Part shown: positions 5,434 through 45,251 of the stretch, piece by piece | Position numbering within the stretch: position 1 is the first letter of the stretch | How the letters are laid out: the number at the start of each line of letters is the position of its first letter | Origin: Bacteroidota bacterium | GTDB lineage: Bacteria > Bacteroidota > Bacteroidia > Flavobacteriales_C > GCA-002722245 | Reading direction: 5' to 3' | Assembly: GCA_026390935.1 (NCBI GenBank) | Contig: JAPLEZ010000153.1 | Span: 4,052-68,051 of the forward strand | Length of the DNA: 64,000 nucleotides | The notes under the pieces: model-generated | Database searches by the model: none | The model's input: only the letters and a program-made list of their open reading frames with translations | What the model was told of the DNA's origin: nothing | Made by a program: the position numbers and the translations under genes

Positions 5434-7232
5434 GATTTTTGCGAGGTAAATTCGCGGATGATACTGTCCATCCAAATAAATTTCATCAGGAATGGAAGGC
5501 GGTTGGCCTGAATGTTTTTCGACATGTTTTTAAAATCGTTCAGCACTTCTTGGCTGATGATGCCCTCATATATTTCCCATTTCGTTTGCGAAAGGTTGTC
5601 CATGAGGTAATCGTAAAATTTCCTGTTGCTCAGCCATGCATTGTAGAGGAAAGTAGTGGACGAAGAGTCGTTCGGATCTGATCGGTTGATGATGTAATCG
5701 GGCATGTTCAGTTTAGTTCGACTCAATTTAATGTTGGGATATTTTGCATAAAACCAGTATTTCCAGTTCGGTTTAAGCATCACTAAATTTTCCAAAACAG
5801 AAAGATGTGTGTATGGAAGGTAAACATTTCTCCCGTAGATCAAAGGCAAATTGATGGTGGAGCGATTGGCTGATCCCTGCATGTATGTGTGCTGATAAAT
5901 CAATTGAAAATAGCCGTGAAAACTCAGTCCGGGCCATTTGCTTAAAATAGGCTGAATGTATTCGTCGTACATCCAGTCGGCCAGTTGACGAATCTCTGTC
6001 ACAGAGCGGTATCCTGGATCATTTTCCCAGAATGGCATATTCTTCATTTCCATGGCCAAACCGAGCAAATAGTCTTTATCGCTAAAGATGTTGGAAGAAA
6101 TATTGTAGTTCTTTTTATAGTAGATTTTCATCAGCCAGTTGGAGAGGAAATTCTGGATGAAGTTGGGATTGTCTTTGTATGAAAATTGAAAATTTCTTGC
6201 GAAGAGTCCGCCCAAACCGGTTATTTTTAATCCTTTCCTCATCGGGAATCCCGCAGCACCAAAAGATAAAACGCTATCGGCATTTTGTCCGCTGATGATT
6301 AAATTGTCTTTTTCAATTTGACTGGCTACTGGTCCGAAGGCAATAGCAGGTGCGTATTCATTGAACAAAAAATCTTTCAGCTCCACAAAATCACGCATTA
6401 TCTGATCGGAAGAATAATCGTAATTGAGTTTTTTGTGTGTGATTTTTTCTTCGGCGGCGAGTTTTTCAGAGTAGTATAAATCGTAGTCATTGTCGATCAT
6501 CTTATCTTTTTTCAATCCGCCGATGATTTCCGTCACAGTGTCTAGCTTGCTGCGATCGGCGCCGTTGGCCATTAAAAATTTCAAGAGAAAAGAAGAATCC
6601 ATTCCTCCCGATAAGTACAACGAATAGTGATCGTAATTTTCAAAATAAGTGCTGAAAGATTCTTTGAGCGTGTTGTAAAACTCATCTACAAAATCTTCTC
6701 CATCAATTCTCCTGGAAGCATCAATTTGCATGTAAGTGCTTAGAGAATAAAAAGTTCCTTTTACCTCGTAAATACTAGCGGGCTCAAATTTGCTGATTTC
6801 ATTGAAGAGCGTGTGTTTTGACGGCGTGTAGTTGTTCAGCATGAATAATTTAACAGCGTTTTTGTTCACTGTAAATTCTTTGCATTCTGCTTTGAAATCT
6901 TTGTAGTTGTCGCTGATGACGAGCTTTTCCCGACTTTGATACGCATACAATTTTAATGCAGCGTATGGATCGGTCACCACAAATAAAGCATCGTTATTGC
7001 GGATGATGAAATAAAAATGGCTCGGAAGACTTTTGTACAATTTATTGACGAAAGTCGCCAATGACATGTTGTTGAAGTGTGCTGCAAAAAACTGTTTAAA
7101 AGCGCCAAACATTTTTTCATTGAGTCCGCCAAACACCAACACTGAAGCATCTTTCACTTCAAACTGATAGTTTTTGAAAACAGAATTTTTGTCAATGGAT
7201 ATAGCGCCTGAGGCGTCAACAACTATTTTCAT
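5430..7232 (-). CDS. Asparagine-synthetase-family PP-loop amidotransferase lacking N-terminal Cys nucleophile (PseA/WbpS-like sugar amidotransferase candidate)
   Basis: SLYLSGGMDSSFLLKF (SGGxDSS PP-loop of AsnB C-domain); starts MKIVVD (no Cys2). Confidence 0.55.
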   Translation of the reverse strand: MKIVVDASGAISIDKNSVFKNYQFEVKDASVLVFGGLNEKMFGAFKQFFAAHFNNMSLATFVNKLYKSLPSHFYFIIRNNDALFVVTDPYAALKLYAYQSREKLVISDNYKDFKAECKEFTVNKNAVKLFMLNNYTPSKHTLFNEISKFEPASIYEVKGTFYSLSTYMQIDASRRIDGEDFVDEFYNTLKESFSTYFENYDHYSLYLSGGMDSSFLLKFLMANGADRSKLDTVTEIIGGLKKDKMIDNDYDLYYSEKLAAEEKITHKKLNYDYSSDQIMRDFVELKDFLFNEYAPAIAFGPVASQIEKDNLIISGQNADSVLSFGAAGFPMRKGLKITGLGGLFARNFQFSYKDNPNFIQNFLSNWLMKIYYKKNYNISSNIFSDKDYLLGLAMEMKNMPFWENDPGYRSVTEIRQLADWMYDEYIQPILSKWPGLSFHGYFQLIYQHTYMQGSANRSTINLPLIYGRNVYLPYTHLSVLENLVMLKPNWKYWFYAKYPNIKLSRTKLNMPDYIINRSDPNDSSSTTFLYNAWLSNRKFYDYLMDNLSQTKWEIYEGIISQEVLNDFKNMSKNIQANRLPFLMKFIWMDSIIREFTSQKS

Positions 7233-8725
7233 CCTATAATTTTTCTTGCTTTTAGTTCAGCTGTAAATGATTGTTTTACGTTGGAGTAATTTTCTTTGTG
7301 ATCGGCAAAGGAATCGATTAAATTTTCCATCAGCGGCAATTGTCCTTTGTGCGATCCGCTGTATTTTCCGGCCAATAGCGCCAAAGCGTGTTTTTCAATT
7401 TCTTGTTCAGAAGGTTTTTCTTTTTTTAAGATATCTCTGATCATGCCTGGAAGTTCCCAGTAGCTCGGACAGTAATGAATCAAATTGGTGCTATTGAAAG
7501 CATATTTGGCAAACATGATGGATGGTTTACCGATGAACATTCCTTCCAGCGCGATGGTTCCCACAATGGTGATGATCAGCTCACAATTTTTTACCAGTTG
7601 TATACTGTTGATGCCATGGGCCAGTAAAATCACATTTTTGAGTTTGGTGATTTCGAGGTAAAATTCAACATCTCTTAAGCCCACCATTACCGAGTGTTCC
7701 TTCACCACCAAAAAATGTCCTGCTGGAATGCTGTTGGCGGCATTGCGGATGAGGGAAACCTGATCGTTGTAGTATTTGCCCAATCCATCTGTGGAATATT
7801 CGGGTTGGTAATGCAGTAAGAAAACACAGTATTTGATGTTTTCCGGAAGTTTAGGCACCGTTAATTTGTTGTAATCGGCATGACGTTTTCTTTCGCGTAT
7901 CATTCGGCGCACTTTTGCCGACAATCCTTTTTCCTGTGCGCTCAGCAAAATATTGGTGCGTTGTTCCTCTTTGTCGAAGCGCTTGAAAGCACGAAAAAAC
8001 TTTTTGCTTATTTCTTTAATCGACAATTGCGAAACATCGGTATATCCCGCTGGCGTTTGGGTTTGCAAAACGCTGTAACTCGGCTTTTCAAATTTTTTGG
8101 CAATGCGATCGTAAATGGGGTAAACTACCTCATGTACTTCTTGCGGAATCCCTTGCTGTACATATTTGTGGTAGTGTTCCACTGCACTTTTCCATTCCCA
8201 GTTGAAAGTATCTTCCAAACAAAATCTTTCAAAATAGCGCGTAGGAATTGGATATAAATATTCTTTGCCTTTGCTGTTGAAAAGGCGTTTGGCGTAACGG
8301 TAAAATGCAAGCGTATATTCTCCCAAACCAACAATTGGCTGGTATTTGTTGAAAGCATCAGTTAAAATTTGTGTGCCGTAATTGTAGTATTGAACGATGA
8401 AAGCTGGATCATTTTTCGCTTCCACAAAGCGATCCATTTTCAGGTCTTCCCACATAAAGGAAGTATTGGTTTCTTTTTCAAGATTTAAAATGCAATCGTT
8501 GATCTTTAAATCATATACCGAAAAATTTTCTTTGGGATTGAAGCCCTGAGTAAGATCGATAATTTCATCGTAGCATTTCAAAGGTTTGCTGAAAGCCACA
8601 GCCGATTTTCCCTGCACAAAAAGAATGACTTTGTGATTTGCACCCAGTTCCTTAAATGCTTCTGCAAAAACAGCGTACCACTTGATTTGCGCTACGTGTG
8701 AGCAGATGAACATAGTTTTTTCCAT
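7229..8725 (-). CDS. Hypothetical protein in polysaccharide locus (possibly capsule-polysaccharide-biosynthesis/KpsS-like glycosyl transferase fold)
   Basis: 498-aa soluble ORF with translational overlap (ATGA) to upstream gene; no motif confidently recognised. Confidence 0.3.
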   Translation of the reverse strand: MEKTMFICSHVAQIKWYAVFAEAFKELGANHKVILFVQGKSAVAFSKPLKCYDEIIDLTQGFNPKENFSVYDLKINDCILNLEKETNTSFMWEDLKMDRFVEAKNDPAFIVQYYNYGTQILTDAFNKYQPIVGLGEYTLAFYRYAKRLFNSKGKEYLYPIPTRYFERFCLEDTFNWEWKSAVEHYHKYVQQGIPQEVHEVVYPIYDRIAKKFEKPSYSVLQTQTPAGYTDVSQLSIKEISKKFFRAFKRFDKEEQRTNILLSAQEKGLSAKVRRMIRERKRHADYNKLTVPKLPENIKYCVFLLHYQPEYSTDGLGKYYNDQVSLIRNAANSIPAGHFLVVKEHSVMVGLRDVEFYLEITKLKNVILLAHGINSIQLVKNCELIITIVGTIALEGMFIGKPSIMFAKYAFNSTNLIHYCPSYWELPGMIRDILKKEKPSEQEIEKHALALLAGKYSGSHKGQLPLMENLIDSFADHKENYSNVKQSFTAELKARKIIG

Positions 8726-8898
8726 CGACTTGATATAGTGAAATTAGAGTGTTTAAAAAGGTGTTTAAATTTCGAACAAAGATATAAATATGCATTGATT
8801 TCACACTTTATTTTAATCCCTGTGTATAAATAGTATTATTTTTTATCTTTAGCCTCTGTAATTAAGGTACAGCACATTAATTGTAATATAAAAGAGGG

Positions 8899-9705
8899 AT
8901 GTATAATATACTTAAAAAAGTAGGCTTGAATTTTGGATTTTCTGCCTTCAATGCTTTAGGTTTCAGGAATTATTTTTTAACACTTGTCAGTTTAGTATTA
9001 AGTATTCCTCAGATTTTTGCCAAAAAAGATTTATCGCCTTTTGATAAAAAGGTGGGCAATGTAACCAATACTTTAAAAGTTAATTTTTTCGGTAAAAAAG
9101 TTGTTTTTCCGGTAAAGGAAATTGAGCAAATTATTCAGGAGGAAAGTTATACTTATGGTGTAATCAGAGAAATGGTTTTCAGAAAATGTTATTTTCAAAA
9201 CATTTCAAAGGAGGAACTTAGTTCGGTTAAAACAGTAGTTGATCTTGGTGCTAACAGAGGGGCCTTTTCTACTTTAATGACTTCCTTTGCTGATCAGATT
9301 ATTGCCGTTGAATGTCAGGAAAAATACCAAACTACTTTTAGATTGTTGATGAAGGAAAATAATTACACTAATTATAAGCTGGTCAACAAATACATTTGTG
9401 GAAGAGAGCAAGGTGAGCAATTCATGACTTTTGACCAATTGCTGGATTCCAATAATATTAAAACGCTTGATTTTCTTAAAATTGATATAGAAGGAAGTGA
9501 GTACGGTTTGTTTGAGAATTCAAAGCGCTTGAAAGATGTAAAACACATTGCTATGGAAGTTCACCCCGATAAAGGAAATCCCCAAGAGTTGGTTGATGTT
9601 TTTGTGAAAAATGGATTTGAAGTAAAGGCAGTCAATCGTGTATTTGAAGCTACCACTGTCCCTAAGGAAATGGACTTTATCTATGCGAAAAGAAAGAAAT
9701 CTTAA
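8899..9705 (+). CDS. FkbM-family SAM-dependent methyltransferase
   Basis: VVDLGANRGAFS and LKIDIEGSEYGLF motifs characteristic of Methyltransf_21/FkbM. Confidence 0.7.
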   Translation: MYNILKKVGLNFGFSAFNALGFRNYFLTLVSLVLSIPQIFAKKDLSPFDKKVGNVTNTLKVNFFGKKVVFPVKEIEQIIQEESYTYGVIREMVFRKCYFQNISKEELSSVKTVVDLGANRGAFSTLMTSFADQIIAVECQEKYQTTFRLLMKENNYTNYKLVNKYICGREQGEQFMTFDQLLDSNNIKTLDFLKIDIEGSEYGLFENSKRLKDVKHIAMEVHPDKGNPQELVDVFVKNGFEVKAVNRVFEATTVPKEMDFIYAKRKKS

Positions 9706-9717
9706 AATAAAGAGGAT

Positions 9718-10716
9718 TTGAAAACAATTTATTTTCGTGCAGATGGAAATGAAAATATCGGTTTAGGTCACGTTTTTCGCTGCCTCTCTATTGCCCAATA
9801 TTTCGGGAAGGAATTCAAAAAAAAGTTTATTATTCATGCGCCATCTCCTGCATTGGCTGGGGAAATCCTTAAAATTTGTGATGAGGTGGTGGAGATTGGA
9901 GCGCCTGGAAATGAAGCTCGATATATGGCAGATGTTGTGTTAAAAGATGCGCATGCGTTGGTGTTGGATGGCTATAATTTCCGTGAGGAATACCTCAAGG
10001 AATTGAACGACGCTGGAGTGAAAACTGTATTTATTGATGATCTGCACGAATGGCCGATGCCGGTGAGTATTGTGGTGAATCATGCCCCTGGCACCACGGC
10101 CAAACATTACGAAGGACTTACCAGCGCTCAATTATTTTTAGGAACTAAGTATCTTTTGCTTCGCAAAGAATTTATTGAAGCCAATAAAATACCGCGTCAT
10201 ATCGCCAAACCCGAACGCTTATTTGTAAGCTTTGGTGGTGCCGACGTTCATAATATTTCTCTCAAAGCATTGAAAGCATTGAGAAAGGTGACGACCATCA
10301 CCAAAATCAATCTTGTTTTGGGAAGTGAGTATACCTTTCATGAAGAACTCAAAGAATATTTAAAAATGTTTCCCGACGAAAGATTAAATATATTCAGTAA
10401 TCTTTCGGCTGCCGGAATGGTGGAAACTATGTCGGAATGCGACTTTGCTCTTCTGCCTCCCAGCTCAATTTCTTTGGAGGCTTTATCAGTTCAATTGGGA
10501 ATTATCACCGGATTGACAGCCGATAATCAAAAAGACATACTTTCGGGCCTAAAAAAGTTTATTTTTGTGCGCGGAATTGAGCCCTTTTTTGAGATTAGCG
10601 AAGAAGGCTTGAAACTGGAAATAGAAAAGTACATGCTGGAGCACGCCAATGGCATTGGCTTTGACGAAGCGAAAATAGATTTATCGGAATTAATACAAGC
10701 AATAATAAAACTATGA
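9718..10716 (+). CDS. pseG: UDP-2,4-diacetamido-2,4,6-trideoxy-beta-L-altropyranose hydrolase (PseG)
   Basis: N-term MKTIYFRADGNENIGLGHVFRCLSIA matches PseG signature (RxDxxxxIGxGHxxRCLxLA); adjacent to pseI/pseH. Confidence 0.7.
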   Translation: MKTIYFRADGNENIGLGHVFRCLSIAQYFGKEFKKKFIIHAPSPALAGEILKICDEVVEIGAPGNEARYMADVVLKDAHALVLDGYNFREEYLKELNDAGVKTVFIDDLHEWPMPVSIVVNHAPGTTAKHYEGLTSAQLFLGTKYLLLRKEFIEANKIPRHIAKPERLFVSFGGADVHNISLKALKALRKVTTITKINLVLGSEYTFHEELKEYLKMFPDERLNIFSNLSAAGMVETMSECDFALLPPSSISLEALSVQLGIITGLTADNQKDILSGLKKFIFVRGIEPFFEISEEGLKLEIEKYMLEHANGIGFDEAKIDLSELIQAIIKL

Positions 10717-11759
10717 TAAAAGTTGGTAATAAACTCATCGGCAAAGGAGCTCCCTGTTTCATTGCAGCCGAAATAGGTATTAATCACAACGGTGATATGG
10801 ACTTGGCATGCAAAATGATTGACGCGGCTAAGGAAGCAGGCGCCGATGCCATTAAATTTCAGAACTACAAAACAGAAGATTTTGTTTTGAATAAAGAACT
10901 CACCTACGATTATATTTCGGGTGGAAAAAAAGTGACAGAAACTCAATTTGATATGTTCAAGCGCTATGAGCTGACGCGCGAACAATTGAAGTTTTTGAAA
11001 GCTTACTCGGATAAAGTCGGACTGACTTTTTTCAGCACTCCTACCGGTGAAGATGGTATTCAGGATTTGTTGGATGCGGGTTGTGAGTTGTTTAAAAATG
11101 GTTCGGATTACCTCGTGAATCTTGAATTGATTCAGGCTTTTGCCCGTACCGGTAAACCTTTGATCATCTCCACGGGGATGTCGGTTTTAGGTGAAATTGA
11201 TGATGCCGTTCGTGCCTTTGAAGAAGCAGGTGGAAAAGAATTATTGATTCTGCATTGTACTTCTCAATATCCAACACCTCCGCTGGATGTGCATTTGAAT
11301 AAAATCACCACATTAAAAAATACTTTCCCTTATCCTATTGGCTTCAGCGATCATTCCGACGGCATTATTGCTGCCGTAGGTTCTGTGGCACTGGGAGCAG
11401 TTTTCATTGAAAAACATTACACTTTAGATAAAAATTTACCGGGTCCCGATCATCGTTTTTCCATGGATCCGAAAGAATTGAAAGAATTGGTTACTGCAGT
11501 GCGCGCCATTGAACAAAACATGGGCTCTCCGGTGATTGGGCCTACGGCTTCGGAAGCGAAAGGTCGCAGAGATTACCGCTTGTCGTGTATCGTTAACAAG
11601 GATGTTCCTGCCGGACACCAATTAACGGAAAGCGATATTATTTTCTCGCGTCCGGCTACAGGCTTACCGCCTAAATTCAAATCTCAACTGGTGGGACGAA
11701 AATTGGTAAAAGCATTGAAAGTCGGACAAGTAGTCACACTCGATTCTTTAAACGGATAA
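10713..11759 (+). CDS. pseI: Pseudaminic acid synthase / N-acetylneuraminate-synthase family (PseI/NeuB)
   Basis: GKGAPCFIAAEIGINHNGDMDLA...AIKFQ (NeuB family TIM-barrel motif), C-terminal SAF domain (VVTLDSL). Confidence 0.8.
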   Translation: MIKVGNKLIGKGAPCFIAAEIGINHNGDMDLACKMIDAAKEAGADAIKFQNYKTEDFVLNKELTYDYISGGKKVTETQFDMFKRYELTREQLKFLKAYSDKVGLTFFSTPTGEDGIQDLLDAGCELFKNGSDYLVNLELIQAFARTGKPLIISTGMSVLGEIDDAVRAFEEAGGKELLILHCTSQYPTPPLDVHLNKITTLKNTFPYPIGFSDHSDGIIAAVGSVALGAVFIEKHYTLDKNLPGPDHRFSMDPKELKELVTAVRAIEQNMGSPVIGPTASEAKGRRDYRLSCIVNKDVPAGHQLTESDIIFSRPATGLPPKFKSQLVGRKLVKALKVGQVVTLDSLNG

Positions 11760-19389: not shown

Positions 19390-20427
19390 ATGAAAATACT
19401 TTTTGTTGCAACTCAAATCAATGGCAATGGTGGAATTCCGCGCTTTAAACGCAATTTAATCAAGCAGCTTAAAAGCAGGGAAAATACTACGGTGGAAGTT
19501 GTTTCTTTAAACGATAGTGAAAAGGAATACAACGGCGCAGGAAAAAATAAAATTAAGTTTTTATTCACTTTCATTCGTGTCATGATCCGCTTCAAACCCG
19601 ATCAGGTGGTATTGGGACATATCCATTTGGTGAAGCTTGCCCGCTTTAAGTTTTTATTTCCATCGGCTTATTGGCACAGCATTTTGTATGGTATTGAAGT
19701 GTGGTTCAAAAGAGATGAACTGTTAAAACATTACCCATCTATCAGTCGCTACTGGGCCATCAGCAATTATACTAAGGCTAAGTTTGCCGAAACCAATAAC
19801 ATAGCTCTTGATAAAATAAAGTTGATTGTTTTGACTACTCCTTCCGACTGGGATCCAAAAGAGTTGGTGCTAACTGATAGCTCTTTCTTTTTGTCGGTTT
19901 CAAGATTGGATAAAAGCGAAGGATACAAAGGCATTGATAAAACGATTGAAGCCATTTACCAGAACAAAGCAGAGATGCAGTCGCTCGGTTACAAATATGT
20001 GATTGTAGCGGCGGGTGATGATTTGCCGCGTCATGTAGATATGGTGAAAAACTATAATTTGTCGGATATTATTTCCATTAAATCGGGAGTGAGTGACGTT
20101 GAGCTGAAGGAATTATACCGAACCACCAGTTGTTCAATTTTACCTTCCAGCGGTGAAGGTTTCGGTTTTATTTTTTTAGAGGCTATGGCTTTCAAAAAAG
20201 CTTGCATCGGCTGTAAAAACTGTGGAAGCGAAGATTTGATTGAGCACGATAAAACAGGATATCTGGTGGAACCAAAAGTGGAAGACATTTGGAAGCACAT
20301 GCGCTTGCTGATGCTGGATCCGGCAAAGAGCAAAGCCATGGGAGAGGCCGGTTATATTAAAAGAGAAAAAGAGTTTAAGGGCGCACGCACCGAAGACAAC
20401 ATTAAGGAACTATTATGTGTGGAATAG
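19390..20427 (+). CDS. Glycosyltransferase family 4 (GT-B)
   Basis: SSGEGFGFIFLEAMAFKKACIG (EX7E-type GT4 motif). Confidence 0.7.
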   Translation: MKILFVATQINGNGGIPRFKRNLIKQLKSRENTTVEVVSLNDSEKEYNGAGKNKIKFLFTFIRVMIRFKPDQVVLGHIHLVKLARFKFLFPSAYWHSILYGIEVWFKRDELLKHYPSISRYWAISNYTKAKFAETNNIALDKIKLIVLTTPSDWDPKELVLTDSSFFLSVSRLDKSEGYKGIDKTIEAIYQNKAEMQSLGYKYVIVAAGDDLPRHVDMVKNYNLSDIISIKSGVSDVELKELYRTTSCSILPSSGEGFGFIFLEAMAFKKACIGCKNCGSEDLIEHDKTGYLVEPKVEDIWKHMRLLMLDPAKSKAMGEAGYIKREKEFKGARTEDNIKELLCVE

Positions 20428-22226
20428 TTGGCTATTATTCTAAAACTGTTAATTCTTCCGAATTTAAATCGGCACTGAAATGCATTGCCCATCGTGGTCC
20501 CGATGACGAGGGGATTTTTGCCGTAAAAGATAATTTTTTGTTTGGACATCGTCGCTTAGCCATTATTGATCTTTCGCCAAAGGGACATCAACCCATGCAT
20601 TCCAACGATGGCAATTACACCATCATTTACAACGGAGAAGTCTACAATTTCAAAGAAGAAAGAGAAATTTTAATCGCCAAAGGATATACTTTTAATTCGC
20701 ATACCGATACTGAAGTTATTTTAAATCAATACATTGAATACGGCATTGATTTTTTAAATCGTTTGCGCGGAATGTTCGGGTTGGCGATTTACGATAAAAA
20801 ACAAAATAAAGTCGTGGTGGCCCGCGATCGAATGGGCATTAAACCAATTTACTATTACCACGATCAACATACTTTTGCTTTTGCTTCTGAACTGAAAAGT
20901 TTAAAAGAATTCAAAGCAGTGAACACCGAAAAAAATCCACAAGCCATCAGCGCGTTTTTGCAATTGGGTTCACTTCCTTTTCCACTCACATTAAACAAGC
21001 ACATTCACTATTTGGAACCTGGTTTTTATTTGGAATGGAAGGGAAATAACGAATTAAAAAAATCACAGTACTTTAATATTGAAGTAAACAAAAGACAAGG
21101 TTTGGTGTACGCCGACGAAGTAAAAAAATTACGTTCTCTTTTGCAGGAAGCGGTTTCCATTCGTACCATGTCGGATGTGCCTTTCGGTGCTTTTTTAAGC
21201 GGCGGAATTGACTCTAGTGTTGTGGTTGCTTTGATGAAATTATCGGGAGTGGAAGATTTAAAAACTTTTTCTATTTCCTTCGACGATAAAAAATATTCCG
21301 AATCGTATTTTGCGGAATTGGTGGCGAAAAAATTCAAAACGCATCATCACACTTTTATCGTTCAGCCTTCCGATGTGAAGAAGGAATTTCACAATATTGT
21401 TTCGCTGATGGATTCTCCAACAGTGGATGGCATCAATACTTATTTCGTTTCAAAATTTACACGTGAGGCGGGCATCATCATGGCCATGTCGGGATTGGGT
21501 GGTGATGAATTGTTTGGCGGCTATGATACTTTTGAGCGCTTGCCTAAATTAGTGTCTGCAAAAAGAAAAACACGAGTAGTGCCTAATTTGATTTTGAATC
21601 AGTCGGCATCCTTGCTTAAAAAGGACAAATACAAAAAGCTGGCGCAGCATTTAACTTCCTCTTCCAACGATTATGCTTCGGCATATCTGGCGTTAAGAGG
21701 CTTGCTTACCGCTAAAACAGCTGCCGATATTATGACGGTGGATGCTACTTTCAACTGTGCCGAATATTTGGAAAAATTATTGTCGGAGTTTGATTATAAG
21801 GACGAAGCCGACATCACCTCATATTTTGAAGCGCGCGTATACATGCACAATCAATTGCTGCGCGATACCGACATCATGAGTATGGCGCATTCACTGGAAG
21901 CACGTGTTCCGCTGATCGATCAAAAACTGGTTGAATTTGCGTATTCTCTTCCGCCCGAATACAGAAAAGGAAAAAGAATGCTGATTGATGCTATGGTAAA
22001 CGAATTGCCACAGGAAGTTTATAACCGACCGAAACAAGGATTTTTATTTCCTTTTCCAGTGTGGATGAAAAAAGAAATTAAGTCGGAAGTGCAGGATTTA
22101 ATTTTCATGAAAAATGATTACCTCAAAGCTACTGCAGTGGAAAAATTATGGAAAGGCTTTATGAGCGATAAGGTACACTGGTCGAGGGTTTGGCAGATAG
22201 CAGTGCTCAATAAAAAATTATCCTAA
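20415..22226 (+). CDS. Asparagine synthase (glutamine-hydrolysing)-family amidotransferase
   Basis: MCGIVGY (Cys2 Ntn nucleophile), RGPDDEG, FLSGGIDSSVVVAL PP-loop. Confidence 0.8.
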   Translation: MCGIVGYYSKTVNSSEFKSALKCIAHRGPDDEGIFAVKDNFLFGHRRLAIIDLSPKGHQPMHSNDGNYTIIYNGEVYNFKEEREILIAKGYTFNSHTDTEVILNQYIEYGIDFLNRLRGMFGLAIYDKKQNKVVVARDRMGIKPIYYYHDQHTFAFASELKSLKEFKAVNTEKNPQAISAFLQLGSLPFPLTLNKHIHYLEPGFYLEWKGNNELKKSQYFNIEVNKRQGLVYADEVKKLRSLLQEAVSIRTMSDVPFGAFLSGGIDSSVVVALMKLSGVEDLKTFSISFDDKKYSESYFAELVAKKFKTHHHTFIVQPSDVKKEFHNIVSLMDSPTVDGINTYFVSKFTREAGIIMAMSGLGGDELFGGYDTFERLPKLVSAKRKTRVVPNLILNQSASLLKKDKYKKLAQHLTSSSNDYASAYLALRGLLTAKTAADIMTVDATFNCAEYLEKLLSEFDYKDEADITSYFEARVYMHNQLLRDTDIMSMAHSLEARVPLIDQKLVEFAYSLPPEYRKGKRMLIDAMVNELPQEVYNRPKQGFLFPFPVWMKKEIKSEVQDLIFMKNDYLKATAVEKLWKGFMSDKVHWSRVWQIAVLNKKLS

Positions 22227-22280
22227 CCGACTCTTCGCAAGCGCTTTATTTCCCAACAAATTAATTGTATTTTTAGGGCC

Positions 22281-23405
22281 GTGAAAATTCTCTTTCCGAT
22301 AGGCTCATTTTACCCCGCACAGTCTGGTGGTCCCAACAATACCATTTATTGGCTGGCCAAGCGTGTAGTTCGTGAAGGTCACGAAGTAGAGGTGATCACT
22401 ACCAACGCCGGCATCAAAGAAGAACACAAAATTGCTTTGGACAAAAGCATTGATTTGGATGGCATTAAGGCCCGTTATTGTTCTACCCGTTTTCATCAAT
22501 TCCCTTTCAGCATGATTGTGCACAGCAGCAGGGCGATGAAAAATGCCGATATCGTTCAATTGAACAGCGTGTTTTATATTCCCTCCATTGTCATTGCTTT
22601 TATAGCACGTTTGAAAGGCAAAAAAGTGATTTGGTCTTCCCGCGGAGAATTAATAGGAGGTGCAATGGAATTCAGAAGTTTTCGCAAGAAAGTACGTTTA
22701 TATTTCATAAAAGCCATCATCAATAAAAATTTTACTTTTCATGGTACTTCTGCTGATGAGTTGCTATCTATTCAAGATCAATTGAAGAAAGACGCGATAC
22801 TGGTTCCGAATTACATGGAAATGCCAGTCAAAGAAGAAGAAGAGCTGCAAAAACAATTTTTATTCATTGGTAGAATTCACCCTATAAAAGCTTTGGACAA
22901 TCTAATAAAAGGAGTTGCAAAATCAAAATTGATGAAAGCTTCCGGCTATAAAATGATAATTCATGGCTATGAAGACAAAGCGGGCTATTTGCAGGAATTG
23001 CAGGAATTGATAAAATCCTTGGGAGTAGAGGGTCAAGTGGAATTCAGAGCACCGATTTCGTCCACCAAAAAATTGAAAGAGTACGCCAAAAGTCGTTTCA
23101 CTTTTTTGGTTTCCAAATCCGAAAATTTCGGCAATACCATTTTGGAGTCTTTGTCGCAAGGCACACCTGTAGTAGCCTCTAAAGGCACACCCTGGGGTGA
23201 GTTGCCAAAGATTCAAGCGGGTTTTTGGATAGAACATTCGGAAGAAGAAATTGCGCGTTGCATTGATGAAATTTTATCCATGGACGAAAGCACTTATCTT
23301 AGCTTTAGAAAAAACGCTTTTTCTTATGCTCACAGCGAATTTGATATCGATCAAAAATATTTAATTTGGATTGAGCATTATAAAAATATTTTACAAAAAC
23401 AGTGA
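22281..23405 (+). CDS. Glycosyltransferase family 4 (GT-B)
   Basis: FTFLVSKSENFGNTILESLSQGTPVVAS C-terminal GT4 motif. Confidence 0.6.
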   Translation: MKILFPIGSFYPAQSGGPNNTIYWLAKRVVREGHEVEVITTNAGIKEEHKIALDKSIDLDGIKARYCSTRFHQFPFSMIVHSSRAMKNADIVQLNSVFYIPSIVIAFIARLKGKKVIWSSRGELIGGAMEFRSFRKKVRLYFIKAIINKNFTFHGTSADELLSIQDQLKKDAILVPNYMEMPVKEEEELQKQFLFIGRIHPIKALDNLIKGVAKSKLMKASGYKMIIHGYEDKAGYLQELQELIKSLGVEGQVEFRAPISSTKKLKEYAKSRFTFLVSKSENFGNTILESLSQGTPVVASKGTPWGELPKIQAGFWIEHSEEEIARCIDEILSMDESTYLSFRKNAFSYAHSEFDIDQKYLIWIEHYKNILQKQ

Positions 23406-24256
23406 TGAGCAAAGCGCCTGTAACAGTTGTTATTCTTACGTTCAATGAATCCATTCATATTGAAAGGGCCATCCTGAACGTGAAAGAATGGGCGCAGGAG
23501 GTGATGATCCTCGATTCTCTTTCTACCGATGACACCTGTGCAAAAGCCGAGGCTTTAGGTGCAAAAGTGTATTACAATAAATTTGAGACTTACTCCAAAC
23601 AAAGAAATTTTGCCATTCAGCAATTGCCCATTCCAACTGAATGGATGTTGTTTTTAGATGCCGATGAATATTTGTTTGATGATTTAAAACAAGAGATAGC
23701 AGAGGTGTTACCTTCTGCAACGTGCAATGGATTTTATTTGAAGCGCCGCTTTTATTTCATGGGCAAATGGATAAAATACGGAGGATATTATCCCACTTAT
23801 ATTTTGCGATTATTTAAAAAACAATTCGCAAAATGCGAGCGTGAAATCAATGAGCACATCAAAGTAGAAGGTGAAATAAAAACCCTCAAAGGTGATTTCG
23901 CCGACGAGAATTTAAAAGGCTTGTCCTCCTGGATTGAGAAACACAACAAGTATGCTTCTTTTGAAGCGCAGGATTTATACCGTCGTGAGCAGGAAGGAGT
24001 GGATGAGGGAGAAGCTGCAAAACTCTTTGGAAAACAAAACGAAAGAAAACGCTGGATAGTAAAAAAAATTTGGAATCCCTTGATGCCAAAGCTCATCAGA
24101 CCATTTATATATTTTGGATACCGCTATTTTTTCCGTTTGGGATTTTTAGATGGCCGCCGCGGATTCATCTACCATTATCTCCAAGGTTTGTGGTTGTGGT
24201 TTCTCATTGATGCAAAGTATGTTGAATTAAAAAGACAAAAGAATGAAGGAAAATAG
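23402..24256 (+). CDS. Glycosyltransferase family 2
   Basis: VTVVILTFNES...LDSLSTDD...FLDADEY (GT2 DxD-type motifs). Confidence 0.7.
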   Translation: MMSKAPVTVVILTFNESIHIERAILNVKEWAQEVMILDSLSTDDTCAKAEALGAKVYYNKFETYSKQRNFAIQQLPIPTEWMLFLDADEYLFDDLKQEIAEVLPSATCNGFYLKRRFYFMGKWIKYGGYYPTYILRLFKKQFAKCEREINEHIKVEGEIKTLKGDFADENLKGLSSWIEKHNKYASFEAQDLYRREQEGVDEGEAAKLFGKQNERKRWIVKKIWNPLMPKLIRPFIYFGYRYFFRLGFLDGRRGFIYHYLQGLWLWFLIDAKYVELKRQKNEGK

Positions 24257-25058
24257 TGAAGCAAAAAATGATGTGAGGGATTTCTGGAACCAGGCATCAT
24301 GTGGTGAGGAATTGTATTTGCACAGTCGAGATAGCGAAGGTTTTGAGCAGCAAATGAAAAAGCGTTACGAGCTGGAACCTTACATTTTAGATTTCGCAGG
24401 ATTTAAAGAAGGCGCCGGAAAAAAGGTATTGGAAATTGGTGTTGGATTGGGTGCTGATCATGAAATGTGGGCGCGTAACAATCCCGAATTGTTTGGTGTG
24501 GATTTAACTCCTCGTGCCATTGAAAATACAACTGAGCGTTTTAAAAGCAAAGGATTGAAATCGACTTTAAAAGTAGACGATGCAGAGAAATTATCTTTTG
24601 CCGACAATACTTTTGATATCGTTTATTCCTGGGGCGTATTGCACCATTCACCCAATACACCAACTGCCATCAACGAAGTACACCGTGTTTTAAAACCGGG
24701 CGGCACTGCAAAAATCATGATTTACTACAAGTACAGTTTTGTGGGATATATGTTGTGGGTGAAATATGCTTTACTGAAATTCAAACCTTTCACTTCCCTG
24801 AAAACCATTTACCACAAGTACTTGGAAAGTCCGGGAACAAAAGCCTACTCCAAAAAAGAAGCTTTTGAATTGTTTAAGAATTACAAAGACGTTAAAATTA
24901 CAACGGTGTTAACGCACGGCGATTTATTAACGTCGGCAGCGGGACAGCGCCATGAAGGAAAAATGCTCGACATTGCCCGCAAAATATGGCCGCGATTTTT
25001 AATCAAAACTTTTTTCCCAAGTCACGGATTATTCATGTTAATCACAGCTAAAAAATAG
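24243..25058 (+). CDS. Class I SAM-dependent methyltransferase
   Basis: VLEIGVGLGAD motif I, ...IVYSWGVLHH. Confidence 0.65.
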   Translation: MKENSEAKNDVRDFWNQASCGEELYLHSRDSEGFEQQMKKRYELEPYILDFAGFKEGAGKKVLEIGVGLGADHEMWARNNPELFGVDLTPRAIENTTERFKSKGLKSTLKVDDAEKLSFADNTFDIVYSWGVLHHSPNTPTAINEVHRVLKPGGTAKIMIYYKYSFVGYMLWVKYALLKFKPFTSLKTIYHKYLESPGTKAYSKKEAFELFKNYKDVKITTVLTHGDLLTSAAGQRHEGKMLDIARKIWPRFLIKTFFPSHGLFMLITAKK

Positions 25059-26947
25059 TGTGCGGCATTTACGGATATATCGGACTGAGTGACGACAGCG
25101 TTTTAAAAAAGATGAGCGCTGCCATGCGCCATCGCGGACCTGATGCGCAAGGATTTTGGGGAGAAGATCAGGTTTTTCTCGGACAAAATCGCTTGTCGAT
25201 TATTGATTTAAGTTCCTCTGCTACACAACCGCTCTTCAATGAAGATGGATCGGTGGTGCTGGTGTTCAACGGAGAGATATACAATTACAAAGAATTGCGT
25301 GAAGAATTGTTGCAGAAAGGACATGTTTTCAAAAGCGAATCCGATTCGGAAGTGCTCGTGCATCTGTACGAAGAAGAGGGAATCACCATGCTTTCCAGCA
25401 TTCGCGGAATGTTTGCTTTTGTGATTTACGATAGAAAGAAAAAGCAAACTTTTATAGCGCGCGATCATTTTGGCATTAAGCCTTTGTATATTTTTCAAAA
25501 GGCGGGACACTTCGCTTTTGCCTCTGAAATGAAGGCTTTGCAGCAACATCCCGAAGTAAAATTTGAAGTGAATCCAAAAGCAGTGTTGGATCATTTGTCT
25601 TTTTTATGGTGTCCTTTTCCAAAAACAATGGCCAGCGATGTAACAAAGCTGGAGCCTGGAACGGCGCTAATTTTAGAAGGCAGCGAAATAAAAAAGAAAT
25701 GGAATTTTTATGATATTCCTTACACGGGAAGACACATGGATATTTCGGAAAAGGATGCGGTGGCGGAATTGGATCGCTTGCTGGAAGCCAGCATCAGCGA
25801 GCAGTTGGTGAGTGATGTTCCACTGGGATTGTTTTTATCGGGAGGATTGGATTCTTCATTGATTGCCGCTTATGTGCGCAAACTGAAACCACAACAAAAA
25901 ATAAAAGCATTCACCATTGATATACAGGGGGCCGACATGGAAGGCAATCCCAATGATTTGCCTTATGCGCGCAAAGTGGCGAAAGATTTAAATATCGATT
26001 TAGAAGAAATTATTGTAACGCCTGCCGAGGTGTTGAAACACCTGGAAGAACTCACGTATATTTTGGATGAACCGCTTGCCGATCCTGCAGCAGTAAATGT
26101 TTTGCTGATCACTAAAATTGCCCGCGAAAAAGGATATATCGTTTTGTTATCGGGAGCAGGTGGAGATGATGTGTTTTCTGGTTACCGCCGCCATCAGGCG
26201 ATGCTACTCGATTTGAAGCTATTTAAATTACCGGCCTTCTCCAGAAAGCTGATGGAATTTGCAGGAAAAAAATTACCGGTTATCAATCCTAAAATCCGAA
26301 AAGCAAAAAAATATTTGCAAAATTTTGGTGCATCATTGAATGACAGATTGGTGTCGTATTATTGCTGGTTGGATGAAAGGAAAGCGCATTCGTTGTTGAC
26401 AAATTCTTTCAATGAGAAATTGAAAGATTACTCATCAATAAAAAATTTGGAGCTTGCTTTTCAAAATATTCCAAATGAAAAATCGGCACTGAATAAAATG
26501 CTCTATCTCGAAAGTAAATATTTTTTAGTGGATCACAACCTCAATTATTCCGATAAAATGAGTATGTGTAATTCTGTGGAAACCCGCGTTCCTTTTATGG
26601 ATTACCGCATTGTGGATTTTGCTGCGCAGTTGCCTGTTGAATTGAAGTTGCAAAACGGACAAGCGAAATACATCCTGAAAAAAGTAGCAGAAAAATATTT
26701 GGATAAAGATATCATCTACCGTAAAAAAACCGGATTTGGTGCTCCTTTGCGGGATTGGATCTTAAATGATTTCCAACCTCTTTTTGATAAATATCTCAAT
26801 AAAGAAATCATGCAAAGGCACGGTGTATTCAAACACGATGCAGTGTGGAAAATGATTAAAGACAATGCTTCCGGAAAAAGCGATTCGGCCTATAGTATCT
26901 TCTCCGTGATTTGTATTTCTATCTGGATGGAAAGATTTCAGAAATGA
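25058..26947 (+). CDS. Asparagine synthase (glutamine-hydrolysing)-family amidotransferase, second paralogue
   Basis: MCGIYGY, RGPDAQG, FLSGGLDSSLIAAY; 3' end overlaps next gene by 37 nt. Confidence 0.8.
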   Translation: MCGIYGYIGLSDDSVLKKMSAAMRHRGPDAQGFWGEDQVFLGQNRLSIIDLSSSATQPLFNEDGSVVLVFNGEIYNYKELREELLQKGHVFKSESDSEVLVHLYEEEGITMLSSIRGMFAFVIYDRKKKQTFIARDHFGIKPLYIFQKAGHFAFASEMKALQQHPEVKFEVNPKAVLDHLSFLWCPFPKTMASDVTKLEPGTALILEGSEIKKKWNFYDIPYTGRHMDISEKDAVAELDRLLEASISEQLVSDVPLGLFLSGGLDSSLIAAYVRKLKPQQKIKAFTIDIQGADMEGNPNDLPYARKVAKDLNIDLEEIIVTPAEVLKHLEELTYILDEPLADPAAVNVLLITKIAREKGYIVLLSGAGGDDVFSGYRRHQAMLLDLKLFKLPAFSRKLMEFAGKKLPVINPKIRKAKKYLQNFGASLNDRLVSYYCWLDERKAHSLLTNSFNEKLKDYSSIKNLELAFQNIPNEKSALNKMLYLESKYFLVDHNLNYSDKMSMCNSVETRVPFMDYRIVDFAAQLPVELKLQNGQAKYILKKVAEKYLDKDIIYRKKTGFGAPLRDWILNDFQPLFDKYLNKEIMQRHGVFKHDAVWKMIKDNASGKSDSAYSIFSVICISIWMERFQK

Positions 26948-27396
26948 TTTTTTTTAAAAAAATAAGCACGCATATTTTCCAATCGGATTTCGAGTTTAAA
27001 AAATTGTTGATCAAAGCCTTTTTTTATTCCATGACGGTGCGTTTCATGATGCTGTTTGTGAAATACAATCGTTATGAAAAGCGTTTGGGGAAAAGAGGCG
27101 AAACAGATACTTACACCTTAAGCGAAAAAGAGTTTGCCATTGCACACAACATCGCAAAAGCTTTGAACGGTGTGAGCAATTATACTTTGTGGGAAAGCAA
27201 ATGTATGGTGCAGGCCGTATCGGCAAAATGGATGCTGCAAAAATATTCTATCCCAAGCACCATTTATTTTGGAATAGCAAAAGATGAAGACAATAAAAGT
27301 AAATTAAAAGCGCACGCGTGGTTGAAAGTGGGCGACTGTGTGGTTACTGGTCGTGCCGGTCATGAGCAATATAAAGTGGTTAATTTTTATTCCTGA
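26911..27396 (+). CDS. Lasso peptide biosynthesis B2 protein (transglutaminase-like Cys protease, leader peptidase)
   Basis: 161 aa; WESKCMVQAV (catalytic Cys), KAHAWLKVGDCVV (His/Asp) - pattern of lasso B2/McjB C-domain. Confidence 0.65.
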   Translation: MYFYLDGKISEMIFFKKISTHIFQSDFEFKKLLIKAFFYSMTVRFMMLFVKYNRYEKRLGKRGETDTYTLSEKEFAIAHNIAKALNGVSNYTLWESKCMVQAVSAKWMLQKYSIPSTIYFGIAKDEDNKSKLKAHAWLKVGDCVVTGRAGHEQYKVVNFYS

Positions 27397-27728
27397 CTTT
27401 ATTCCTCACAAAAACATAGGGCCAGAAGAGAGATCTTCAGCGGGAATCAATTAATCTATTGGTTTACCCATTTAAATTACAAAAACTAAATTTGACAGAA
27501 ATATTTTTGTATAGATCCTGCAAAAAGTTCAGGATGACGTTGGCTAGGTATCTCCTGAAGATTATGGTTCACCTTGGTCATCCTGAACTTGTTTCAGGAT
27601 CTATAAAAGAACCCGCCAGGCACTTCATGCATAGTGGATGACGACGTGGTGAAGCGAAGAATCGGGTATGAAAAATGGAATGTTTAATTTTTATTCCTGA
27701 CTTTATTCCTCACAAAAACATAGGGCCA
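27381..27728. repeat. 44-bp direct repeat (27381-27424 and 27685-27728) flanking a ~260-bp insert that carries an imperfect 25-bp inverted repeat (27514-27538 / 27577-27601)
   Basis: Copies identical by eye; copy 1 encodes the C-terminus of B2 (+), copy 2 encodes the C-terminus of the nucleotidyltransferase (-). Confidence 0.6.
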
Positions 27729-28811
27729 AAACAAAGGATATAAAAACGATAAAGTTGCTGGCAAGGAAACATATTTGTACATAAAAAACGGATAGTTGTA
27801 CAAATAAAATAAGCGTGCTCTGAAAGATCCGCTATGTTCCACTTCCACTGCCAGTCGTTTTAATTTGTATGAAACACTTTCACGATTGATAGGAGGATCA
27901 ATGCTTCCAGGAATATATAAAATGAGTGATCTTGCTTTTTCCTTGCTTTTAAATGTGATTTTATTTTTTATTTCCGATGAATAATTTTTTGTTTTTAAAA
28001 GATCTTCAAGTAATGCAAAAGTAATGGACAATTGTTTATCAAATCCATGTTTTTCAGAAAGACGGATCAGATTATTTATTTCTACTTCGGAGGATTTTTT
28101 AACTAAGATATCTAGATCCACCAACCACATCAATCTTTCCCATGCGTGCTGAAATCCGTGCAATAAAAGATATGCTAAATATTGGGCGTTGCCCATGGTA
28201 GAAAATTCAGTGTTGCCAATTTTAATCGTTTGCTTTTCTTTCCAAATATCTTGGAAAGAGAGCGGTAAAATATAGTTGTTTCTGAAGAGTCGCCAATGAA
28301 TTTCAAGGTTTACTTTTTTTTCAGGATGATGGTATAAAAACTGGTCGAAGTTTTTAATCAATACTTCTTTTTGATTTTCTTTTATTTCAAATTCCGGACT
28401 CGTTCTTTTCCATCCAGCAGCAAGCAATATGTTGTTGATGCGAAAGAGCTCGTTGGGCGCAATTAACAAGTCGATATCCAAAGAAGGGCGACAAAGTTTA
28501 TTGCCATGTAAAATCTGGTTGAGCGCCAAGCCCTTTAACAGCAGAAACGAAAGCTGATTTTGTTGAAATAGCGCATTCAGCTCTAAGAGTGTTTTTTGTT
28601 GTCGGAAAGCCTTGCGAGAATCTGCAGTTATTTTTTGTTGCAAGCTATCTGTAAATTGATCAGCCAAGAATAGTTGCAGTTTGTGCTTCACTATGGTAGC
28701 GTGTTCAATAGAGTATGAGGTAGCATGATGGGTGTTGCCCAAACGAAATGCCAAGAGCTCAGTGAGATTCACAAAGTCTTCACAATAAGTTGATTTTAAC
28801 GCGGCGCTCAT
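27684..28811 (-). CDS. Uncharacterised nucleotidyltransferase-family protein (PF14907-like) of the type found in kinase-containing lasso peptide clusters
   Basis: SLDIDLLIAPNELFRINNILLAAGWKR ... HWRLF pattern; genomic context next to HPr-kinase-like gene. Confidence 0.5.
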   Translation of the reverse strand: MSAALKSTYCEDFVNLTELLAFRLGNTHHATSYSIEHATIVKHKLQLFLADQFTDSLQQKITADSRKAFRQQKTLLELNALFQQNQLSFLLLKGLALNQILHGNKLCRPSLDIDLLIAPNELFRINNILLAAGWKRTSPEFEIKENQKEVLIKNFDQFLYHHPEKKVNLEIHWRLFRNNYILPLSFQDIWKEKQTIKIGNTEFSTMGNAQYLAYLLLHGFQHAWERLMWLVDLDILVKKSSEVEINNLIRLSEKHGFDKQLSITFALLEDLLKTKNYSSEIKNKITFKSKEKARSLILYIPGSIDPPINRESVSYKLKRLAVEVEHSGSFRARLFYLYNYPFFMYKYVSLPATLSFLYPLFWPYVFVRNKVRNKN

Positions 28812-33471: not shown

Positions 33472-33591
33472 ATGAAAACAGAAAAAGAAGTAAAAAAAGT
33501 TTGGGTTAAACCTGAATTAAAAGTTGAAGAAGTAGAAGTTACTAATGGTGGTGGGGCGCGAGTTAGAGAATCAGGGACTTACAGAACGTAA
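33472..33591 (+). CDS. Lasso peptide precursor A2: MKTEKEVKKVWVKPELKVEEVEVTN|GGGARVRESGTYRT
   Basis: Read by hand (39 aa); leader Thr at -2, Gly1, Glu8 for 8-residue macrolactam. Confidence 0.7.
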   Translation: MKTEKEVKKVWVKPELKVEEVEVTNGGGARVRESGTYRT

Positions 33592-33595
33592 TTGT

Positions 33596-33805
33596 TTATA
33601 TCTCTTTGAGATAGTTAAAGAGTTCAAAATCTTTTTTGTAAAAGTCTTTAACCATTTCAAGTAATTCATCATCGTAAAATTCCATGAAATTCAAGTGCTT
33701 AGAGCTATTGATTTCATGGAATTTTGGTTTTGATAGGTTTAAGGTATTGAAGAAGGACTGGAGGATGAGCTTCGAGACCAATTTACTGTGGTGGCATGTG
33801 TTCAT
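33596..33805 (-). pseudogene. Truncated duplicate of the 3' end of the sulfotransferase gene at 34024-34650 (C-terminal ~47 aa near-identical)
   Basis: ...NLSKPKFHEINSSKHLNFMEFYDDELLEMVKDFYKKDFELFNYLKEI vs C-terminus of 34024..34650 product; nucleotide repeat 33592-33750 ~ 34017-34175. Confidence 0.6.
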
Positions 33806-33893: not shown

Positions 33894-34019
33894 ATGGAAA
33901 ACAAGAACGAACAAGAAATTAAAAAAGTTTGGGTTAAACCTGAAGTTAAAGTTGAAGAAGTAGATGTTACTAATGGTGGTGGGCCGGGATTGAGAGAAGG
34001 AGGGACTTACAGATCGTAA
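33894..34019 (+). CDS. Lasso peptide precursor A3: MENKNEQEIKKVWVKPEVKVEEVDVTN|GGGPGLREGGTYRS
   Basis: Internal Met of track ORF 33684..34019; same leader; only last 41 codons judged real. Confidence 0.7.
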   Translation: MENKNEQEIKKVWVKPEVKVEEVDVTNGGGPGLREGGTYRS

Positions 34020-34023
34020 TCGT

Positions 34024-34650
34024 TTATATCTCTTTGAGATAGTTAAATAGTTCAAAATCTTTTTTGTAAAGGTCTTTAACCATTTCAAGTAATTCATCAT
34101 CGTAATATTCCATGAAATTCAAGTGCTTAGAGCTATTGATTTCATGGAATTTTGGTTTTCCTAGGTTTAAAGCACTAAAGATGTGCTGAAGGTCATTGTT
34201 GAAGTTTTCCACCTTTCCTATAAAATCCATTTTGAGTTGGCGGTTTTCATTGACTAAGAATTCAAACTGCGGCAGCAAATGAATTTTTGATTCCAGATTT
34301 TCCTTACTAAGCATTTTTTTAATTTCGTCTCGATGTACTGAAGGACTTATGTTTTCAGTCTTTTTTATGAAGAAGTAATAGGAGATGAGTCTATCGTATG
34401 GATTGCGAACAAAAGCAAATTTATAATATTCGTTGATTAATGGCTTGAAGTAGGGTTCTACTTCCGTATACTTTAAATGACCATGTGGAATATCGGCCAG
34501 TTTTTTAAAAGGAAGTTTGCTCGACTTAAATAATGCAACCTGTTCAAGGTCCTTTTCAGACAGATGTTCCCGCAAAGCAAAGCGCACTGAATGTGTTCCT
34601 GTTTTAGGAATCGCAAAAAACATAAATTTATGTTGGTGGCTGATGATCAC
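34024..34650 (-). CDS. Sulfotransferase-family protein (second sulfotransferase of the cluster)
   Basis: FFAIPKTGTHSVRFAL (PKTGTT-type 5'-PSB motif), VRNPYDRLISYY. Confidence 0.6.
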   Translation of the reverse strand: MIISHQHKFMFFAIPKTGTHSVRFALREHLSEKDLEQVALFKSSKLPFKKLADIPHGHLKYTEVEPYFKPLINEYYKFAFVRNPYDRLISYYFFIKKTENISPSVHRDEIKKMLSKENLESKIHLLPQFEFLVNENRQLKMDFIGKVENFNNDLQHIFSALNLGKPKFHEINSSKHLNFMEYYDDELLEMVKDLYKKDFELFNYLKEI

Positions 34651-35307: not shown

Positions 35308-35580
35308 ATGGACTTGAATAAAAAAATCTCCCGCAGCGATAATTATGTTTTCAATGAAGTGGATGGAGAGTTGGTAATGATGAACATTGAAACAGGTTCG
35401 TACGCGAGCTTAAATGAAACTGGGAAATCTATTTGGTTGCAGTTGGAAACAGCTAAAACATTGGATAGTGTGATTGAAGGTTTGATTGCCGAATATGAAA
35501 TTGATAGAGCTACTTGTGAGCAAGAAGTTTTTCCTTTCGTGGAAAAAATGGTAAAAGACGAAATACTGATTTTAGCTTAA
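35308..35580 (+). CDS. PqqD-like RiPP recognition element (lasso peptide B1 protein)
   Basis: 90 aa, NEVDGELVMMNIETGSYASLNETGKSIWLQLETAKTLDSVIEGLIAEYEID - PqqD family pattern. Confidence 0.65.
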   Translation: MDLNKKISRSDNYVFNEVDGELVMMNIETGSYASLNETGKSIWLQLETAKTLDSVIEGLIAEYEIDRATCEQEVFPFVEKMVKDEILILA

Positions 35581-44951: not shown

Positions 44952-45251
44952 TTATGCAGCCTTTCGTATGTGTTTTTTAATGCTTTGAAATTCTTTTTCC
45001 TTATGATTTTGTTCTTCTTCAATATCAAAATCATCTTGTAAACCCAACCAGAATTTTGGGGAATTACCAAAATACAAACTCAAGCGCAAGGCGGTGTCAG
45101 CGGTAATTCTTCTTTTTCCTTTTATTATTTCTGATAAGCGGGTTTGAGGAATAGAAATTTCTTTAGAGAGGCGGTAAGCAGTTATTTCTAAAGGCAATAG
45201 AAATTCTTCCATTAATATTTCTCCCGGGTGTATGTTTTTAAGTTTTGTCAT
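44952..45251 (-). CDS. higA: HigA-family antitoxin / XRE-type HTH protein (no cognate toxin gene adjacent)
   Basis: HPGEILMEEFLLPLEITAYRLSKEISIPQTRLSEIIKGKRRITADTALRLSLYFGNSPKFWLGLQDDFD - canonical HigA pattern. Confidence 0.65.
   Translation of the reverse strand: MTKLKNIHPGEILMEEFLLPLEITAYRLSKEISIPQTRLSEIIKGKRRITADTALRLSLYFGNSPKFWLGLQDDFDIEEEQNHKEKEFQSIKKHIRKAA

Follow-up and report, generated by a model that had tools for sequence, protein, structure and literature searches.

A REP-bearing insert between the duplicated 3′ ends of two convergent lasso peptide genes in a Bacteroidota genome

Two convergent genes of a lasso peptide cluster, one encoding the B2 protease and the other a nucleotidyltransferase (NTase), end in the same 45-bp sequence in an uncultured Bacteroidota genome, and the two copies of that sequence enclose a 259-bp insert. 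The locus lies in a 64,000-nt stretch of contig JAPLEZ010000153.1 (GenBank assembly GCA_026390935.1, positions 4,052 to 68,051), referred to here as the window. The insert contains a hairpin whose arms can be recognized as repetitive extragenic palindromic (REP) units of the CGTC-tagged class. We consider it likely that a REP-bearing segment was inserted where the ends of the two genes once overlapped by 17 nt, and that 45 bp of the target were duplicated, so that neither gene was truncated. The result is a neat evolutionary footprint and not a new kind of system, and the duplication is unusual but single.

The duplicated gene end and its insert

The exact direct repeat occupies 27380-27424 (copy 1) and 27684-27728 (copy 2), a spacing of 304 nt, and the insert fills 27425-27683. 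A preliminary description of this DNA had placed a 44-mer at the end of both genes, B2 on the plus strand and the NTase on the minus strand, with 260 bp between its copies. The 44-mer does occur exactly twice in the window, where shuffled sequences predict no occurrence, and both stop codons were located in the copies. The repeat is really 45 bp long, and the insert exists with a size of 259 bp.

The B2 gene (26944-27396, plus strand) encodes a transglutaminase-like protease of 150 aa (Pfam Transglut_core3, E = 1.4e-20). Its last codons and its stop (TGA, 27394-27396) take up the opening 17 nt of copy 1, and the other 28 nt of that copy are non-coding. The NTase gene (27684-28811, minus strand) encodes a protein of 375 aa of family PF14907 (NTP_transf_5, E = 4.1e-43). 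Copy 2 supplies its last 14 codons and its stop (TAA, 27686-27684 on the minus strand), and the protein ends ...WPYVFVRNKVRNKN. Both open reading frames (ORFs) are intact, and both C-termini are kept in homologues, that of B2 being VVNFYS. Past the B2 stop, copy 1 codes for nothing now and yet matches NTase coding sequence exactly over its remaining 28 nt, which is possible only if an overlapped original was copied.

The insert itself has no similarity to the flanking coding sequences. Comparison with B2 and NTase coding DNA by blastn returned only words of 7-10 nt, and either reading frame, when extended into the insert, meets many stops. Because the insert shares nothing with the flanking genes, a plain tandem duplication of a 304-nt unit was rejected. 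The sole ORF within it is a spurious one of 60 aa that runs across the REP arms, and it contains no integrase or other element gene. A few bases outside the 45-mer retain weak residual similarity, with the residues LFWP readable directly after copy 1, and beyond the 45 bp similarity falls off abruptly.

Related loci show what the junction looked like before the insert arrived. These came from a protein search with the NTase, in which three homologues with 52-54% identity belonged to syntenic clusters, and from a scan of JGI metagenomes with a degenerate 45-mer, which added one further locus (L119). In three loci a single homologous 45-mer serves both stops, and the convergent B2 and NTase genes overlap by 17 nt: L003 (NTase 10001-11125, B2 11109-11561), L004 (NTase 7095-8201, B2 8185-8634) and L119 (B2 8708-9160, NTase 9144-10274). 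Two others, L001 and L002, have a 30-nt spacer between the genes and an NTase that is three residues shorter. Judged by B2 identity to the window, L004 is the closest relative (80%) and L003 the most distant (63%). Since both of these are overlapped, parsimony indicates that the overlap is ancestral and the insert derived. The window copies differ from each other at 0 of 45 positions, whereas the relatives differ from the window at 3 to 6 of 45, so the duplication is much younger than the lineage split. An ancestral pair of overlapping convergent genes, as had been proposed, is thus borne out by the three empty sites, with the overlap measuring 17 nt and not 44.

The hairpin arms and the CGTC-tagged REP class

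The insert contains an inverted repeat with arms of 35 nt at 27504-27538 and 27577-27611, which are 89% complementary and separated by a loop of 38 nt. A 25-bp imperfect inverted repeat noticed earlier (27514-27538/27577-27601) is real and forms the core of this structure, with two mismatches; the true arms extend further. Measured against shuffles, folding of 27495-27620 gave z = -5.8 as RNA and z = -6.0 as DNA, and folding of the insert (27425-27676) gave z = -4.8. The arms can be read as two inverted CGTC-tagged units (27504-27541 and 27576-27611) that make up a REP dimer at 27504-27611, with the tags pointing inward (the 'TT' type). This dimer is foldable as a single long hairpin or as two small ones.

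CGTC-tagged REPs were described by Di Nocera, De Gregorio and Rocco (2013, BMC Genomics 14:522; PMC3733652). The parts of that paper drawn on here, to which every comparison with it below is confined, give these repeats a tag of CGTC, TGTC or CCTC, stems of 8-9 bp beginning with A-T pairs, loops of 4-5 nt and short tails, mostly CCA. Dimers are formed 20-100 bp apart and can fold into one large hairpin. The repeats favour the ends of convergent and same-direction genes, clusters are reiterated along with flanking DNA, and decayed units occur in the clusters. Rickettsia RPE-4 and RPE-6 and Neisseria dRS3 are given as equivalents. No transposase was found with CGTC repeats in this account, and no RAYT (REP-associated tyrosine transposase) is known for them.

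The window dimer shares most of these features. Its right arm folds into an 8-bp stem with an A-T start (ATCCTGAA / TTCAGGAT) and a 5-nt loop (CTTGT), and its left arm has one stem mismatch. The tag, of the form (C/G)GTC, reads CGTCATCC in the left arm (27541-27534, minus strand) and, as a variant, GGTCATCC in the right arm. The arms together form the dimer hairpin of the class, the site is one where convergent genes end, and a decayed unit lies close by. This is a degenerate remnant at 27636-27663 in the right flank of the insert (GGATGACG ... GAAGCGAAGAATC, with GGATGAC at 27636), recognized when the type-1 arm consensus was aligned locally (p of about 0.01 against shuffles); a REP remnant in the left flank was not significant (p = 0.2). 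The window dimer departs from the 2013 account in its short tail, which is CTA(T) where most units have CCA, in its inward tags, which are rare there, and in its host, an uncultured Bacteroidota lineage. Because the arm architecture of tag, 8-bp stem and 5-nt loop fits PMC3733652, the hairpin arms are REP units of a very widespread and already known CGTC-tagged class.

The window holds a second dimer of the same superfamily at 45282-45388, with 35-nt arms that are 100% complementary, a 37-nt loop and a TGTC tag on both arms. It lies 4 nt past the stop of asnS (45393-46847, minus strand) and upstream of a helix-turn-helix, HigA-like gene (44952-45251, minus strand). With the first dimer between the convergent B2 and NTase genes, both therefore occupy the kind of gene-end location given for CGTC repeats in PMC3733652. 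The two hairpins share ATAGATCCT...TCAGGAnGAC / GTCnTCCTGA...AGGATCTAT. The arm variant of the second dimer, GCGATAGATCCTTCCTTCGTCAGGAGGAC, is also present in genomes of Flavobacteriales and Chitinophagales (L046, L103, L056, L058). The loop motif TCCTGAAG, which the two window hairpins also share, was considered as a family feature and rejected, being present in only 5 of 141 loops.

Copies of this superfamily are widely dispersed. The pattern GATCCT-N5-12-TCAGGANGAC-N25-50-GTCNTCCTGA, scanned against one genome per GTDB species, matched at least 114 stretches, where by our own estimate about one is expected by chance. At least 272 REP units were counted in the matching stretches, and the window alone has two dimers and a remnant in 64 kb. 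Host lineages include Bacteroidota, Alpha- and Gammaproteobacteria, Rickettsiales, Chloroflexota, Acidobacteriota, Armatimonadota, Gemmatimonadota, Clostridia, Synergistota, Melainabacteria, Patescibacteria and others. Among the matches listed, 18 loci from Alphaproteobacteria, Rickettsiales and Gastranaerophilales have arms identical to the right arm of the window dimer, GTCATCCTGAACTTGTTTCAGGATCT. Arms are conserved, in three variants, and loops are unrelated between copies. A viral origin was rejected, with one match in 2.9 million viral contigs.

Arm conservation close to the nucleotide level (L005-L118 from GTDB, L120 from IMG/VR) spans roughly 20 phyla, far more than the five phyla in the 2013 description; among the lineages covered are Chloroflexota, Acidobacteriota, Armatimonadota, Firmicutes, Synergistota, Patescibacteria and Melainabacteria. 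The arms are this strongly conserved with no enzyme known to act on them. Several genomes carry long tandem arrays (L058 at 5530-6200, and L026, L010, L089, L084 and L043) in which REP dimers alternate with conserved spacers of 30-60 nt at a period of about 120-200 nt. These arrays, which occur in several phyla, are superficially CRISPR-like.

Other classes of small repeat fit the insert less well. A REPIN consists of two inverted REPs and a spacer that form a hairpin, thought to be the replicating unit; REPINs are of the GTAG class, with a RAYT gene and conserved spacers. They are reportedly mobilised by RAYT transposases, a finding credited to Bertels and Rainey in 2011. The window element likewise has two inverted REPs and a spacer forming a hairpin, but it is of the CGTC and not the GTAG class, and its spacers differ between copies, those of the 141 matches being mutually unrelated. 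Miniature inverted-repeat transposable elements (MITEs) such as Correia, ERIC, RUP and Nezha are bounded by terminal inverted repeats, duplicate a short stretch of target (about 2-10 bp) and exist in many full-length copies, and they can be transcribed into hairpins. Like them the insert is small, non-coding, palindromic and intergenic. Unlike them it has an internal palindrome and a 45-bp duplication, and neither the window nor the fetched loci contain another full-length copy. Classification as a MITE was rejected on the length of the duplication and the lack of further copies in the window and these loci.

Intrinsic terminators have a short G+C-rich stem and a loop of 3-8 nt followed by a run of T. 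A Rho-independent terminator was rejected for the insert, as the stem is 35 nt and the loop 38 nt long, no T tract follows, and a terminator scan found no terminator-like site in the insert. The preliminary description had left the choice between a MITE-like and a terminator element, and had reserved the simple terminator for an insert that was both unique and unstructured. 'MITE-like' is roughly right for a dispersed palindromic repeat family and the simple terminator falls away; the hairpin is strongly folded and not unique, and it is only for the 259-bp insert as a whole that the window and the fetched loci gave no second copy. Rfam has no family for the hairpin. A permissive scan of the region and a scan of 18 hairpin-carrying loci at gathering thresholds gave nothing but meaningless miRNA-like matches and unrelated tRNA and tmRNA. 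The arm sequences, searched as text in papers, gave only chance primer matches.

Origin of the 45-bp duplication

In the course of events that we favour, the 3′ ends of B2 and the NTase overlapped by 17 nt, and a 259-bp segment of repeat DNA, with one intact CGTC REP dimer and at least one decayed unit, would have entered this junction. In the same event 45 bp of the target would have been duplicated, giving each gene a complete 3′ end. Insertion and duplication may have been produced together by host replication or repair, and there are two possible routes. First, synthesis could have switched template, copied a REP cluster at another place and returned 45 nt behind the point it had left. Second, a captured fragment could have been joined to staggered breaks after fill-in of their ends. 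Involvement of a transposase seems less likely. Only those events that duplicated the overlap would have survived selection.

Several observations weigh against this reading. No direct repeat flanks the second window dimer. Among 132 hairpins from the fetched loci, the longest direct repeat flanking a clean single dimer is at most 13 nt, a chance level also seen in controls. The complete 259-bp insert occurs only once in the 64-kb window and not at all in the fetched loci, and a 22-mer from its loop had no match in JGI metagenomes or IMG/VR. The source of the insert and its mobility as a unit are unproven, and the mechanism of duplication is inferred from a single case.

The 45-bp duplication is specific to this locus and is not a general footprint of the REP family. 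Long flanking repeats were tried as a family-wide target duplication and rejected, since among the 132 hairpins they occur only inside tandem arrays. Literature on REP or REPIN insertions yielded no long target duplications, and the parts of PMC3733652 used here do not mention a 45-bp duplication for CGTC REPs. Because 45 bp fits no known MITE or transposase, and because other copies lack a duplication, the event should not be called transposition with target-site duplication. The proposal that the gene pair was split by an insertion with target duplication survives to that extent: the insertion is flanked by duplicated target, which is not the footprint of a MITE or transposase. It is doubtful that the duplication exemplifies how CGTC REPs spread generally, through copying into new sites by host replication or repair and not by transposition. 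If it did, the locus would be a rare instance in which a filled site can be matched with its empty counterpart for a REP class without a known transposase, and the tandem arrays of REPs plus flanking DNA in many genomes would be explained by recombination between duplications of this kind.

The junction could instead have arisen in two steps, with a tandem duplication of about 45-55 bp separating the gene ends and REP DNA landing or expanding at the joint later. The same cluster does contain a tandem duplication across a convergent junction (33481-33764/33909-34192, 90% identical), and the weak leftover similarity just outside the 45-mer, including the readable LFWP, also speaks for this origin. 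However, the insert sits exactly at the boundary between copy 1 and copy 2, a placement with a random chance of about 1 in 28 given the 28-nt non-coding part. Similarity outside the 45 bp is lost abruptly, and no intermediate was observed. We regard a two-step origin as unlikely.

A patchwork created by gene transfer is very improbable. Here a foreign allele on the NTase side would have brought REP DNA past its 3′ end, and copy 1 would be the stump of the resident allele. The 6 nt directly after copy 1, GAAGAG, can be read as Leu-Phe via CTC TTC, as in the L001 and L004 alleles, whereas the functional gene has TTG TTT, but these 6 nt are also one half of a small palindrome, GAAGAGAGATCTTC, which is part of the insert. 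Identity between the two 45-mers is 100%, against 3 to 6 differences in 45 among the alleles of relatives, and the stump would be only about 51 nt long.

We give little credence to an assembly artefact, in which a chimeric join in a metagenome-assembled genome (MAG) made the repeat. The identical NTase protein does carry an NCBI Bacteroidetes MAG label, but assemblers do not usually work with a k-mer length for which 45 bp would be k or k-1, both ORFs end in conserved C-termini, and the interior is a genuine REP dimer as at other loci. Mis-assemblies usually yield inverted or collapsed repeats and not a clean direct repeat around unique DNA. Finally, integrase insertion typically leaves exact direct repeats of 40-60 bp by which gene 3′ ends are restored, but the idea that ours are the attL and attR of a site-specifically integrated element with most of its interior deleted is barely tenable, as the 259 bp hold no integrase or any other gene, the interior is REP-derived, and an attachment site at a rare lasso-cluster junction is implausible.

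If, as we favour, a REP-bearing segment was inserted into the overlap, the hairpin would lie in the 3′ untranslated ends of both transcripts. By analogy with other REPs it would most likely act as a stabiliser of RNA 3′ ends or a barrier to read-through, or it may just as well be neutral. Recombination between the 45-bp repeats could remove the insert precisely, restoring the overlap. The locus would be a natural example of how an insertion into overlapping convergent genes destroys neither of them, the shared end being duplicated, and would offer a dated before-and-after comparison for a REP class that has no established means of spread. The known picture of lasso biosynthesis and of REPs is unchanged.

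The AsnB-B2 junction and the rest of the cluster

Upstream of the insert, the start of B2 had been placed 37 nt inside the preceding AsnB-type gene. That figure was taken from the first in-frame TTG (26911) and has to be corrected. Met1 of three B2 homologues from related loci aligns with ATG 26944, so B2 is 150 aa long, compared with 147-150 aa in relatives, and its start overlaps the AsnB stop (26945-26947) by 4 nt, ATGA. The corrected start is of value for annotation. The preliminary description was right that B2 adjoins the AsnB-type gene without a spacer, and this junction is kept in relatives.

The AsnB-type gene (25058-26947, plus strand) encodes a glutamine-dependent amidotransferase of 629 aa with an N-terminal MCG (Pfam GATase_6/7 and Asn_synthase, E = 3.8e-89) and is the final gene of a glycan-like operon ahead of B2. 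A gene of this type with 629-631 aa also lies directly upstream of B2 in L001, L004 and L119. In L003 the AsnB-type gene beside B2 has only 336 aa, and B2 is intact. The window region 19390-27396 contains glycosyltransferases, a methyltransferase, two AsnB-type amidotransferases and then B2, and it is syntenic in L001, L002, L003, L004 and L119. Because a start/stop overlap of 1-4 nt and a glycan-like operon upstream recur in all five of these loci, the junction between B2 and the operon is old and conserved, and not peculiar to the window genome. In this lasso peptide clade, B2 consistently stands at the end of a glycan-like operon and is probably expressed from there.

Lasso clusters with an HPr-kinase-like kinase and a PF14907 nucleotidyltransferase are of the paeninodin/pseudomycoidin type. 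The window cluster resembles these in its split B1 (PqqD) and B2, its Asn-synthase-like cyclase, its kinase-like gene, its NTase and its precursors ending in Ser or Thr. It differs in that B2 closes a glycan-like operon, with predicted translational coupling to the AsnB-type gene, and stands apart from B1 and the cyclase, an arrangement kept in the five related loci. Downstream of the insert, Pfam identified a weak HPr-kinase-like gene, a sulfotransferase, the Asn-synthase-like cyclase and a methyltransferase, and the PqqD (B1) gene lies at 35308-35580. The lasso precursor leader KKVWVKPELKVEE is present in four conserved copies in the window, at 33312, 33466, 33894 and 36860. Two precursors could be read fully, with C-termini ...YRT and ...YRS. 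As far as sequence can suggest, these ends fit C-terminal Ser/Thr modification by the kinase-like and NTase genes.

The 284-nt tandem duplication at 33481-33764 and 33909-34192 has a period of 428 and includes a lasso precursor gene and the 3′ end of a convergent Sulfotransfer_2-like gene (34024-34650, minus strand). It leaves a pseudo-fragment ORF of 69 aa (33596-33805, minus strand) of the sulfotransferase gene. In the homologous lasso cluster of L004, a single REP unit, AGATCCTGAAACAAGTTCAGGATCT, lies within a perfect palindrome with 22-nt arms (2110-2158), between convergent Sulfotransfer_2 and methyltransferase genes.

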